Made by a program: the position numbers and the translations under genes
Notes under the pieces: generated by a model
The model's input: only the letters and a program-made list of their open reading frames with translations
What the model was told of the DNA's origin: nothing
Databases searched by the model: none
Assembly (NCBI RefSeq): GCF_009931435.1
Contig: NZ_CP043414.1
Direction: 5' to 3' (one strand)
From: Escherichia coli
GTDB lineage: Bacteria; Pseudomonadota; Gammaproteobacteria; Enterobacterales; Enterobacteriaceae
Length of the DNA: 64,000 nucleotides
Shown: piece by piece, positions 310 through 61,388 of the stretch
How positions within the stretch are numbered: position 1 is the stretch's first letter
Layout: each line of letters starts with the position of its first letter

Positions 310-482
310 AAAGTTCTTTTGTGTTGCATTGCTGGCGTAAATGTCAGCAATGCAGCATTTCCTCACGATTCTCCTTTGACGATCGCACTTTTTGCTCGTT
401 ATGATGGCGTCGCTAGCCTCAGTAAATCCTTACTCCGGCGGTGCGCAACCCGTGCGCGTGAACCACTATCTGAATGCTCATC

Positions 483-1415: not shown

Positions 1416-1607
1416 GGGTAGGCAGGATAAGGCGTTTACGCCGCATCAGGCATTCGGAGCACAATGCCTGATGCGATGCTTGCGCATCTTATCAGGCCTA
1501 CAAACGTGACGCGTCCGTAGGCAGGATAAGGCGTTCACGCCGCATCCGGCATTCGGTGCACGATGCCTGATGCGATGCTTCTATTTGCATCAGACATCCA
1601 GCCGTAT
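1416..1607. repeat. REP/BIME cluster, at least two REP copies in opposite orientation
   Basis: Repeated gcaggataaggcgtt(t/c)acgccgcatc(a/c)ggcattcgg units and imperfect palindromes tgcctgatgcgatgctt in the pbpG-dld intergenic region. Confidence 0.7.
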
Positions 1608-20975: not shown

Positions 20976-21094
20976 ATATTCATCCCTGAAATGTATTAAT
21001 GAAATAAAAGATATTTTACGCGCAATAAATGTTTGGCGCATTAGTTGTTTGAGCGGAAAATATCTGGAAAGCAGATCACAGTAAATAAAAAAAC

Positions 21095-21235
21095 CTGCTG
21101 GTGAGGCAGGTTCTTTTATTTACTACTTTCAGGCCTAACACCACGGCCTGTGCAACATCGTGTTCCAACGAACGAATTATAACCACCGCTGGACCCCGTT
21201 GCAATTAAGATAATGAGATTTATAATCCTGACAGT
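21095..21235 (-). ncRNA. orzO: Candidate OrzO antitoxin sRNA, copy 1 (boundaries approximate)
   Basis: On the minus strand the hairpin aacctgcctcaccagcaggtt is followed by a 7-T run, i.e. a terminator for a transcript running divergently from the zorO leader. Confidence 0.35.
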
Positions 21236-21407: not shown

Positions 21408-21497
21408 ATGGACACGCTGACACAAAAGTTAACCGTGCTCATTGCCGTACTGGAGTTATTAGTGGCTCTGTTACGGTTGATTGATTTGTTGAAGTAA
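21408..21497 (+). CDS. zorO: Type I toxin ZorO, 29-aa hydrophobic peptide, copy 1
   Basis: atg..taa ORF encoding MDTLTQKLTVLIAVLELLVALLRLIDLLK, preceded by ggagag Shine-Dalgarno-like sequence and followed by hairpin gggggaaaataccgcttccccc plus T-tract; matches my recollection of ZorO. Confidence 0.75.
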   Translation: MDTLTQKLTVLIAVLELLVALLRLIDLLK

Positions 21498-21704
21498 CGG
21501 GCAAATTGAAACGCATCTAAGGGGGAAAATACCGCTTCCCCCTTTAATAAAATGATTACTGTTTTTAATAATTCATCATATAACTCATTTTTATTTATAA
21601 ATTCATCGATTTTATATTCAACGCACCATTTGACCGGGATGTAAATATTTATGGTGGGCTATTGGCAAAAAATATCTGGAAAGTAGATCGCAGAAAATAA
21701 AAGA

Positions 21705-21845
21705 ACCTGCTGGTGAGGCAGGTTCTTTTATTTACTACAGTGACGCTAACTTGCTGATTGTGCAACATTTCGTACCAACGAATAAATTATAACCATATCC
21801 ACACTCCATTGCAATTCAGTGAATGAGATTTATAATCCTGCCCGT
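21705..21845 (-). ncRNA. orzO: Candidate OrzO antitoxin sRNA, copy 2 (boundaries approximate)
   Basis: Same minus-strand hairpin plus U-rich tract as copy 1. Confidence 0.3.
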
Positions 21846-22017: not shown

Positions 22018-22107
22018 ATGGACACGCTGACACAAAAGTTAACCGTGCTCATTGCTGTACTGGAGCTATTAGTGGCTCTGTTACGGTTGATTGATTTGTT
22101 GAAGTAA
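22018..22107 (+). CDS. zorO: Type I toxin ZorO, copy 2
   Basis: Peptide identical to copy 1 despite synonymous nucleotide differences (gcc to gct, tta to cta). Confidence 0.75.
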   Translation: MDTLTQKLTVLIAVLELLVALLRLIDLLK

Positions 22108-44391: not shown

Positions 44392-44428
44392 GATAATAAT
44401 TCTTAGTATTAATTCGGCAATCCGATTC

Positions 44429-44463
44429 TACTCCCCCCCAGTACCTGATACTACCCCCCAGTA
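44429..44463. promoter_or_regulatory. Two RcnR operator sites in the rcnA-rcnR divergent promoter region
   Basis: tactcccccccagta (44429..44443) and tactaccccccagta (44449..44463), each a TACT-G6-N-AGTA inverted repeat on the complementary strand. Confidence 0.8.
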
Positions 44464-44511
44464 GAATAATAGTGCTATGATTTTTCATGTTCTTGTTAAC
44501 CAGGTGTTGCC

Positions 44512-44784
44512 ATGTCTCATACAATCCGTGATAAACAGAAACTGAAAGCGCGTGCCAGTAAGATTCAGGGTCAGGTCGTGGCGCTCAAGAAAATGCTCGA
44601 CGAGCCGCACGAATGCGCAGCTGTTCTACAACAGATTGCTGCTATCCGTGGCGCGGTAAACGGTCTGATGCGGGAAGTGATTAAAGGTCATCTGACGGAA
44701 CACATCGTTCACCAGGGGGATGAGCTAAAACGTGAAGAAGATCTGGATGTCGTTCTGAAGGTGCTGGATTCATATATCAAATAA
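44512..44784 (+). CDS. rcnR: Ni/Co-responsive transcriptional repressor RcnR
   Basis: 90-aa ORF ([29 protein letters not shown]), CsoR/RcnR family. Confidence 0.9.
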
Positions 44785-44869
44785 TTTCACAACGTTATTG
44801 TAATCCCGCCGTTTTTCCTCGTTTACAACGTGTGCGCGGGACATTACCATCCATCTCTGCGATTCATCA

Positions 44870-45006
44870 TCGCAACCAAACGACTCGGGGTGCCCTTCTG
44901 CGTGAAGGCTGAGAAATACCCGTATCACCTGATCTGGATAATGCCAGCGTAGGGAAGTCACAGACCACCAGGTCATTGCTTCTTCACGTTATGGCAGGAG
45001 CAAACT
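44870..45006 (+). promoter_or_regulatory. Thiamine pyrophosphate (TPP) riboswitch in the thiM leader
   Basis: Canonical aptamer ggggtgcccttctgcgtgaaggctgagaaatacccgtatcacctgatctggataatgccagcgtagggaa, then an expression platform containing the ggcaggag Shine-Dalgarno sequence just before the thiM ATG. Confidence 0.9.
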
Positions 45007-45795
45007 ATGCAAGTCGACCTGCTGAGTTCCGCGCAATCAGCGCACGCGTTAAACCTCTTTTACCAACACTCTCCTCTTGTGCATTGCATGACCAATGATG
45101 TGGTGCAAACCTTTACTGCCAATACTTTACTGGTGCTCGGTGCATCGCCAGCGATGGTTATCGAAGCAGAAGAGGCCAGTCAATTTGCGGCTATCGCCAG
45201 TGCCTTGCTAATTAACGTCGGCACGCTGACGCAGCCACGCGCACAGGCAATGCGTGCTGCCGTTGAACAGGCAACACACTCCCAAACGCCCTGGACGCTT
45301 GATCCGGTCGCGGTTGGCGCACTCGATTATCGTCGCCGTTTTTGTCATGAACTTTTATCTTTTAAACCGACAGCGATACGTGGTAATGCTTCGGAAATCA
45401 TGGCATTAGCTGGCGTTGCTAATGGTGGACGGGGAGTGGACACCACTGACGCCGCGGCTAACGCGATACCTGCTGCACAAACACTGGCACGGGAAACTGG
45501 CGCAATCGTCGTGGTCACTGGCGAGGTGGATTATATTACCGATGGTCGTCGCACCGTTGGCATTCACGGCGGCAATTCGTTAATGACCAAAGTGGTAGGA
45601 ACTGGCTGTGCATTATCGGCAGTTGTCGCTGCCTGTTGTGCATTACCAGGCGATATGCTGGAAAATATCGCATCTGCCTGTCACTGGATGAAACAAGCCG
45701 GAGAACGCGCCGTCGCCAGAAGTGAAGGGCCTGGCAGTTTTGTTCCCCATTTTCTTGATGCGCTCTGGCAATTGACGCAGGAGGTGCAGGCATGA
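45007..45795 (+). CDS. thiM: Hydroxyethylthiazole kinase
   Basis: 262-aa ORF directly downstream of the TPP riboswitch; overlaps thiD by 4 nt. Confidence 0.9.
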
Positions 45796-46592
45796 AACGG
45801 ATTAACGCTCTGACAATTGCAGGCACTGATCCCAGTGGTGGCGCAGGAATTCAGGCAGATCTCAAAACGTTCTCTGCACTTGGTGCTTATGGTTGTTCAG
45901 TAATAACCGCCCTGGTAGCGCAAAACACCCGAGGCGTGCAATCGGTGTATCGCATAGATCCTGATTTTGTCGCCGCGCAGTTGGATTCGGTGTTCACTGA
46001 TGTGCGAATCGACACCACTAAAATCGGTATGTTGGCGGAAACCGATATTGTTGAAGCGGTGGCAGAACGGTTGCAACGTTATCAGATCCAAAACGTGGTA
46101 CTCGACACCGTTATGCTGGCAAAAAGCGGCGACCCTCTGCTTTCACCTTCGGCGGTTGCCACGCTGCGCAGTCGATTATTGCCACAGGTTTCATTAATAA
46201 CGCCAAACTTGCCCGAAGCTGCCGCCTTGCTCGACGCGCCACACGCGCGCAACGAACAGGAAATGCTGGAACAAGGGCGATCGCTGTTGGCGATGGGCTG
46301 TGGCGCAGTGCTAATGAAAGGTGGTCATCTGGATGATGAGCAAAGCCCGGACTGGCTGTTTACTCGCGAGGGGGAACAACGGTTTACTGCACCGCGCATT
46401 ATGACCAAAAACACCCACGGCACTGGTTGTACGCTCTCTGCGGCGTTGGCTGCACTGCGCCCGCGCCATACAAACTGGGCTGACACCGTCCAGGAGGCAA
46501 AAAGCTGGCTTTCATCGGCGTTAGCCCAGGCCGACACGCTGGAAGTTGGTCACGGTATTGGTCCGGTTCACCACTTCCACGCCTGGTGGTGA
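45792..46592 (+). CDS. thiD: Hydroxymethylpyrimidine / phosphomethylpyrimidine kinase
   Basis: 266-aa ORF; ribokinase-like motifs. Confidence 0.9.
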
Positions 46593-46647
46593 GCACCTTA
46601 CTATAGCTGCTTTGGTTATTGTCAGTATTTAGCGCTGACATTCAGGG

Positions 46648-47475
46648 ATGAAACCAATGCAGCTGAGAATCACCAGTCGAAAAAAATTCACCGCTTTATT
46701 ATGCGCTCTTGGGCTAATTTCCATCGTTGCAATTTATCCGCGTCAGACGGTGAATTTTTTCTATTCGACAGCAATTCAGATTAAAGACTACATCCACTTC
46801 TACGGTTATCGTCCGGTTAAATCTTTCGCTATTCGCATTCCTGCCAGTTACACCATTCACGGAATAGATGTTTCGCGCTGGCAGGAGCGGATCGACTGGC
46901 AGCGGGTGGCAAAAATGCGCGATAACGGTATTCGCTTGCAATTTGCCTTTATCAAGGCGACGGAAGGCGAAAAACTGGTGGACCCGTATTTTTCGCGTAA
47001 CTGGCAACTAAGCCGCGAAAATGGCCTGTTGCGTGGGGCGTATCATTATTTTTCCCCGTCGGTATCCGCCTCAGTTCAGGCGCGATTATTTCTGCAAACG
47101 GTGGATTTTGCCCACGGTGATCTCCCTGCTGTGCTGGACGTAGAAGAGCGCGGAAAATTATCGGCGAAGGAATTACGCAAGCAGGTAAGTCAGTGGCTAA
47201 AAATGGTCGAAAAAAGCACAGGAAAAAAGCCGATTATTTATGCAGGCGCGACGTTTTATCACACGAATCTGGCGGGGTATTTCAATGAATATCCGTGGTG
47301 GGTGGCTCACTATTATCAACGTCGTCCGGACAATGACGGCATGGCCTGGCGCTTCTGGCAGCATTCCGACCGTGGACAGGTAGATGGCATTAATGGTCTG
47401 GTGGATTTTAATGTGTTTAATGGCACGGTGGAGGAGCTGCAGGGATTCGTTGATGGGATTAAAGAAACGCCTTAA
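46648..47475 (+). CDS. yegX: Glycoside hydrolase family 25 (lysozyme-like) protein; start uncertain
   Basis: 275-aa ORF with N-terminal hydrophobic segment and GH25-like sequence. Confidence 0.75.
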   Translation: MKPMQLRITSRKKFTALLCALGLISIVAIYPRQTVNFFYSTAIQIKDYIHFYGYRPVKSFAIRIPASYTIHGIDVSRWQERIDWQRVAKMRDNGIRLQFAFIKATEGEKLVDPYFSRNWQLSRENGLLRGAYHYFSPSVSASVQARLFLQTVDFAHGDLPAVLDVEERGKLSAKELRKQVSQWLKMVEKSTGKKPIIYAGATFYHTNLAGYFNEYPWWVAHYYQRRPDNDGMAWRFWQHSDRGQVDGINGLVDFNVFNGTVEELQGFVDGIKETP

Positions 47476-61217: not shown

Positions 61218-61244
61218 AAAAAATAAGCCCGTGTAAGGGAGATT
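61218..61244. other. Unoccupied P2-type phage attachment core (attB) within the cyaR 3' end
   Basis: aaaaaataagcccgtgtaagggagatt matches the P2 att core as I recall it; no prophage genes are present between yegR and yegQ. Confidence 0.6.
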
Positions 61245-61304
61245 ACACAGGCTAAGGAGGTGGTTCCTGGTACAGCTAGCATTTTATGGGTTATGTTTTT
61301 CAGC
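61218..61304 (-). ncRNA. cyaR: Hfq-dependent, CRP-activated sRNA CyaR (RyeE)
   Basis: Minus-strand sequence gctgaaaaacataacccataaaatgctagctgtaccaggaaccacctccttagcctgtgtaatctcccttacacgggcttatttttt matches CyaR as I recall it, including the terminator hairpin and U-tail. Confidence 0.85.
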
Positions 61305-61388
61305 GAAACGGATGATAACCTTAATAAATGCAGCTGTATGTGATCGGTTTCTAAGAATTTTCCATCCGGGAAAAATAATCGAAATTAA

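Follow-up and report, generated by a model that had tools for sequence, protein, structure and literature searches.

The thiM TPP riboswitch in a further Escherichia coli lineage: a predicted translational OFF switch in the thiMD leader

Our findings place the E. coli thiM TPP riboswitch, almost beyond doubt, in the stretch of E. coli DNA analyzed here (64,000 nucleotides of contig NZ_CP043414.1, hereafter the window), where it would serve as a translational OFF switch within the 150-nt leader of thiMD. The element is that of K-12 carried in another E. coli lineage, and as such it is already known and ordinary. Its value lies in providing a positive control for scanning, being a known non-coding regulator that a track of open reading frames misses. 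Beyond what is known, the analysis offers two leads: a rare but probably neutral allele of the expression platform, and the aptamer as a site of mobile-element integration in a small percentage of E. coli genomes. The features are listed below, with leader nucleotide 1 set at window position 44872.

44822-44850, + strand: sigma-70-like promoter candidate, TTTACA-17 nt-TACCAT, from a consensus scan only (9/12 matches)
44857, + strand: inferred transcription start, the C of CUGC, from published numbering
44859-44873, + strand: small 5'-terminal hairpin GCGAU-UCAUC-AUCGC with a 5-bp stem, predicted in the minimum-free-energy fold
44876-44972, + strand: TPP riboswitch aptamer, by match to RF00059; paired core P1-P5 at 44882-44959
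44910-44915, + strand: J3-2 UGAGAA (U39-A44), pyrimidine-binding pocket, read from the sequence
44963-44974, + strand: hairpin of nt 92-103, GACC-ACCA-GGUC, holding G100/G101, predicted in both states
44977-44986, + strand: switching segment or anti-Shine-Dalgarno UGCUUCUUCA, nt 106-115, from folding and conservation
44993-45000, + strand: ggcaggag, with the Shine-Dalgarno (SD) core AGGAG at 44996-45000, six bases before the ATG at 45007
45007-45795, + strand: thiM, hydroxyethylthiazole kinase (TIGR00694, 328 bits, cutoff 256; PGAP)
45792-46592, + strand: thiD, HMP / HMP-P kinase (TIGR00097, 361 bits, cutoff 205)
45047-45118, + strand: stretch rich in C and poor in G, with the counterparts of the K-12 Rho sites, by homology

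The initial annotation had claimed a TPP riboswitch in this leader and named an Rfam scan as the test that could overturn it. The scan returned a + strand match to RF00059 (TPP) at 44876-44972, scoring 71.5 bits against a gathering score of 54.3 (E 4.2e-12 over both strands of the 64-kb window), which covers the full model (1-105 of 105) and is the single TPP match in the whole window. Canonical pairs occupy 21 of the 23 pairs of the model, and the three-way junction is present, in which P1 closes one arm made of P2/J3-2/P3 and another made of P4/P5; like that of K-12, the window aptamer lacks the optional P3a stem. The P4/P5 'thi-box' ACCUGAUCUGGAUAAUGCCAGCGUAGGGAA occurs verbatim at 44927-44956 and is identical in K-12. 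Both this element and J3-2 are invariant or nearly so among 77 aligned leaders, U39 to A43 being invariant throughout, and contacts to TPP are made by G40, G42 and A43 (Lang et al. 2007, PMC2018614). No differences separate the window aptamer from K-12 nt 5-90, the identity in fact holding over nt 1-90, and high-affinity, selective TPP binding has been shown experimentally for the K-12 aptamer (PMC2018614, PMC1920254). With nt 1 at 44872, the residues discussed in the literature (G18, G19, C24, U39-A44, U62, A69 and G100/G101) fall into exact register. The same annotation had described the element as a known one, and this is borne out by PGAP (RefSeq), which annotates a 'TPP riboswitch' at the same bases, between rcnR and thiM, in E. 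coli 2013C-4282, a genome with 100% identity to the window across 246 bases around the site.

With its end 35 nt before thiM and on the same strand, the aptamer lies in the 5' leader of a thiamine gene. Locally, the gene order runs from rcnB and rcnA on the - strand through rcnR (44512-44784, its identity confirmed by an NCBIfam equivalog model) and a 222-nt spacer to thiM and thiD. That the switch controls thiMD, as first proposed, agrees with the next two open reading frames, which are ThiM and ThiD and whose coding sequences share 4 nt (ATGA). In Bastet et al. 2017 (PMC5499598) the thiM ORF begins at residue 151 and the tetranucleotide CUGC serves as primer for transcription; the start is placed at 44857 because 45007-150 = 44857 and positions 44857-44860 read CTGC. 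The promoter candidate lies 7 nt upstream of this start, and both hexamers are the same in K-12. The stem of the 5'-terminal hairpin is kept in K-12 and Escherichia and not in other genera. A 68-aa antisense ORF at 44770-44976 was considered and dismissed, as it has no family match.

Folding of the leader recovered two alternative arrangements, a TPP-free helix and an SD hairpin, which are the structures expected of a platform able to sequester the SD that had been noted just upstream of the thiM ATG. In the unconstrained fold, aptamer nt 71-89 (44942-44960) pair with nt 106-125 (44977-44996), such that the partner of the switching segment is aptamer nt 79-89, and the SD core is partly open, with an unpaired probability of about 0.35 in the ensemble. 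The minimum-free-energy structure reproduces the nt 71-86 : 108-125 helix of the published TPP-free model, in which chemical and enzymatic probing of K-12 RNA paired nt 71-86 with nt 108-125 and found the SD modified at 126-129 (Rentmeister et al., PMC1920254). When the aptamer pairs of the Rfam model were enforced as a proxy for the ligand-bound state, 44977-44986 paired with 44992-45002 (nt 106-115 with nt 121-131), CUUCUU (44979-44984) pairing with the SD, and the unpaired probability of the SD dropped to 0.01. This predicted sequestration agrees with the chemical-probing and reporter data for K-12 (PMC1920254, PMC5499598). At the core of the switch, CUUCUU has two complements, GGGAAG at the aptamer's 3' end and the SD. 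By nearest-neighbor energies the enforced state lies ~10 kcal/mol above the free state, and ligand or tertiary energy together with co-transcriptional folding, which are outside the folding model, must therefore supply the difference. Plain folding stability was dropped as evidence of structure, the minimum free energy of the leader having a z-score against shuffles of only -0.43; the information lies in which helices form and in the folds under constraint. Together, the features by which sequence, folding and comparison define an RF00059 aptamer and an SD-sequestering OFF switch are all present, the support for the OFF switch being in silico and comparative.

The platform is not confined to the untranslated leader. 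In K-12 it takes in the first ~22 nt of the thiM ORF (PMC5499598), which corresponds to about 45028, and mutation of G100/G101 abolishes control (PMC1920254). The functional unit is accordingly slightly larger than the interval 44870-45006 given in the initial annotation, extending from the inferred start at 44857 to about 45028. Across genera, the first thiM codons CAACCUGACCUGCU (45013-45023) are near-invariant at synonymous sites, and a CCUGC within them is complementary to the GCAGG of the SD region. Such constraint on the beginning of the ORF fits its membership in the expression platform.

In the mechanism we propose, low TPP would leave the 3' half of the aptamer (nt 71-89) free to pair with nt 106-125, thus occupying CUUCUU and leaving AGGAG available, so that thiM would be translated, with translation of thiD coupled to it through the ATGA overlap. 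At high TPP, the ligand would settle into the three-way-junction aptamer with its pyrimidine in J3-2 and its pyrophosphate in P4/P5. Binding would lock P1, P4 and P5 and release CUUCUU, which would then pair with AGGAG in the hairpin of 44977-44986 with 44992-45002 and block initiation. Untranslated thiM RNA would in turn expose a C-rich Rho loading site, leading to an early end of transcription inside thiM. Of this scheme, the present analysis supplies the aptamer's identity, two pairings that exclude each other and are both conserved, and the lack of an intrinsic terminator. TPP binding, SD protection, reporter repression and Rho termination would carry over from the near-identical K-12 sequence.

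Rho enters this scheme through K-12, where TPP-dependent translational repression is followed by Rho termination at +231, +237 and +262 (Bastet et al. 2017, PMC5499598), Rho loading and termination having been mapped and thiM codons 20-34 implicated in the same study. These positions correspond to 45087, 45093 and 45118 in the window, and the segment from +191 to +215 is 36% C and 4-8% G in the window, the same as in K-12. By homology, the window would thus hold equivalent loading and termination sites. Two refinements to the earlier reading are that the platform reaches the first thiM codons and that in K-12 the translational block is followed by Rho termination in thiM. The involvement of Rho, the fall of thiMD mRNA with TPP in K-12 (PMC5499598) and the C-rich, G-poor tract retained in the window are also what would be seen if the riboswitch acted mainly on transcription, either by an intrinsic terminator/antiterminator or by a leader Rho site whose exposure the ligand controls directly. 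We regard this as very improbable. Between the aptamer and the thiM ATG there is no G+C-rich hairpin with a U-tract behind it, and terminator-like sites numbered zero in 44400-46800, where shuffled sequences gave an expectation of 2.6. Moreover, the Rho effect in K-12 requires thiM codons 20-34, disappears once translation is uncoupled, and is reproduced when moved behind a different translational riboswitch (PMC5499598). For the K-12 element it is also reported that TPP causes no termination within the leader in single-round in vitro transcription, and that transcriptional fusions retaining just six codons of thiM are unregulated. The dependence of the Rho effect on thiM codons and on translation therefore makes it a consequence of the translational block, and control of initiation remains the favored reading.

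Among known systems, the closest is the K-12 thiM TPP riboswitch, reportedly described by Winkler et al. 2002, which is like the window element in its locus (rcnR / thiM-thiD), promoter hexamers, aptamer sequence, anti-SD, SD, spacing and two alternative folds. The two differ by G91A in the leader, by three bases in early codons and by a thiM coding sequence that is 91.8% identical at the nucleotide level. Bacillus-type TPP riboswitches (such as the tenA and thiC leaders) use an intrinsic terminator/antiterminator; they share ligand and aptamer architecture with the window element, but their intrinsic terminator has no counterpart in the window. The E. coli thiC and thiB (tbpA) riboswitches share the aptamer class RF00059, yet belong to different operons with different expression platforms, and neither lies in the window. 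These two are reported to follow the same general logic, with translational repression and effects at the mRNA level (PMC5499598, PMC11487190). Structures of the thiM riboswitch are credited, through citation in PMC2018614, to Serganov 2006 and to Edwards & Ferre-D'Amare 2006.

Comparison of thiM leaders across species shows that both pairings are conserved. A ThiM-based scan of one genome per species gave 80 loci, of which 76 carry the leader, the four without a full leader being two from Providencia (no aptamer) and two from Pseudocitrobacter (truncated aptamer). Alignment was performed with MAFFT on 77 Enterobacteriaceae thiM leaders, 76 of them distinct. Among the 76 distinct leaders no variation is seen in P1, P2, P4 or P5, compensatory changes occur in P3, and the pairs formed by the switching segment with the SD and with GGGAAG are both at least 97% intact, although invariant, so that they speak for conservation and not for covariation. 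The RNAalifold consensus of the 77 leaders consists of the aptamer and a CUUCUU:GGCAGGAG hairpin, the GGAG of the SD is invariant in all of them, and the stem of the nt 92-103 hairpin co-varies between genera. Covariation in the anti-SD:SD helix was considered and set aside, since the core is invariant and supports conservation alone; gaps introduced by MAFFT misalign the flanking pairs, though changes from U-A to C-G between Escherichia and Enterobacter are visible there by eye. When the 76 distinct leaders were folded, the accessibility of the SD in Escherichia fell from 0.3-0.5 in the free state to 0.01 with the aptamer enforced, and in many other genera the equilibrium folds were ambiguous, with accessibility of about 0.2 in both states, because the SD there has a second partner in the conserved CCUGC of the first thiM codons. 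We therefore restrict the in-silico two-state claim to Escherichia. As a separate observation, the leader of Enterobacter hormaechei subsp. hoffmannii has P2/P3 rewritten in a compensatory manner, GUGCCCUUC...GAAGGCUGAGA becoming GUAGUGUUC...GAACAUUUGAGA, a change that includes C38U directly before the conserved UGAGA.

Within E. coli the riboswitch occurs in 5424 of 5426 complete genomes. From nt 1 to the ATG, the window leader differs from that of K-12 MG1655 by a single base, G91A at 44962 (0.7% divergence, 99.3% identity), compared with 8.2% divergence and 19 amino-acid changes across the thiM coding sequence, 94.9% identity for thiD and about 15% divergence in the spacer upstream of the transcription start. 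A near-invariant leader thus accompanies a controlled gene that has diverged by 8%. This pattern of divergence suggests recombinant thiM alleles behind a strongly constrained leader. The divergence of thiM from K-12 is also unusually high for an E. coli core gene. No evidence was found that the match is fortuitous or a decayed remnant without regulatory function, and such a reading is extremely improbable given a full-length RF00059 match at E 4e-12, a leader nearly identical to the experimentally characterized one of K-12, constraint on the leader much stronger than on the flanking coding sequence, and its presence in virtually every complete E. coli genome.

The single leader difference merits closer consideration, as it sits in the expression platform and is accompanied by further differences from K-12 in the first 11 codons of thiM: G154A (45025, Gly7Ser), A159C (45030) and T168A (45039). 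A91 is found in 7 of about 5400 E. coli genomes, G91 in 5382. Conceivably, the rare combination of A91, A154 and C159 alters the switch, a weaker outer OFF-state helix giving leakier repression or a shifted TPP threshold. In silico, the aptamer-enforced K-12 leader forms an outer OFF-state helix of nt 91-103 : 145-158 that is lost in the window sequence, which reverts to the local 92-103 hairpin (minimum free energy -38.0 against -39.9 kcal/mol for K-12), and G100/G101, which lie inside the 92-103 segment, are needed for control (PMC1920254). We nonetheless consider an altered switch unlikely. G91A and G154A together take about 2 kcal/mol from the predicted outer helix, an energy difference between alleles smaller than the error of the folding model. 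The SD-sequestering hairpin is untouched, the unpaired probability of the SD being 0.01 with A91 and G91 alike, and A is the commonest base at the nt 91 column in other genera, as it is in several other Escherichia species. The A91 allele is probably neutral. An apparent G91-C159 pair, seen in a chimeric sequence, is not compensatory and vanished with the real K-12 sequence, which has A159.

The second lead came from E. coli genomes that match the leader at two separate places, three of which were examined. The window itself represents an unoccupied site, without insertion; elsewhere, integrase-bearing elements lie inside the thiM aptamer in about 3% of E. coli genomes. In AH20I049 (locus L085, NZ_CP196267.1, 8925-20100) a 10.9-kb phage-satellite-like element lies between rcnR and thiM. 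It codes for a tyrosine integrase, a primase, an Icd-like protein, a HEPN protein and a fusion of prohead protease with major capsid protein, and on either side of it stands a 13-14 bp direct repeat, (A)GAAATACCCGTAT, of aptamer nt 41-54 (the site at 44912-44925 in the window). Only a 5'-truncated aptamer is left before thiM; this element destroys the riboswitch. Its attL junction occurs in 55-74 of 5426 complete E. coli genomes, O157:H7 included. In STEFF_1 (locus L086, NZ_CP048609.1, 8181-16148) a 7.7-kb island encoding a tyrosine integrase, an HNH endonuclease and a serine recombinase has an 82-nt copy of aptamer nt 2-83 (window 44873-44954) at each end. PGAP calls two TPP riboswitches there: the copy on the thiM side is complete, so that a rebuilt riboswitch precedes thiM. 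The second copy lacks the 3' strand of P1, and the integrase ATG follows 66 nt downstream of it, so that the thiM promoter and an aptamer without P1 precede the integrase gene. The junction of this island is present in 126 of 5426 genomes. The third case (locus L084, NZ_CM172609.1, 43742-48832) is a decayed 5.1-kb remnant that splits the aptamer and holds a truncated integrase, two IS3 copies and a DUF6453 protein between 13-bp repeats AATGCCAGCGTAG of nt 69-81 (window 44940-44952). The leaders of Pseudocitrobacter faecalis and P. vendiensis, in which only the 3' third of the aptamer remains, lose homology at the same base as this third insertion.

With at least three integrase-bearing elements inside it in other genomes, we lean towards the view that the aptamer DNA doubles as an attachment site for mobile elements. 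If so, mobile elements would be targeting an invariant leader of structured RNA for integration, much as they do tRNA genes. A search of papers for thiM as an integration site found no description, though catalogues of islands and prophages may already list it.

Several other Rfam matches were recorded in the window. Two tandem matches to the OrzO-P antitoxin sRNA, of 98.9 and 87.3 bits, lie on the - strand at 21087-21162 and 21699-21772, and each adjoins an identical 29-aa hydrophobic ORF, MDTLTQKLTVLIAVLELLVALLRLIDLLK, on the + strand at 21408-21497 and 22018-22107. The arrangement resembles a duplication of a zor-orz type I toxin-antitoxin locus. Also above the Rfam thresholds are the CyaR sRNA at 61221-61306 (- strand, 100.7 bits), naRNA4 at 1421-1498 (+ strand, 76.9 bits) and a Peptidase-S11 leader motif at 398-478 (+ strand, 72.8 bits).
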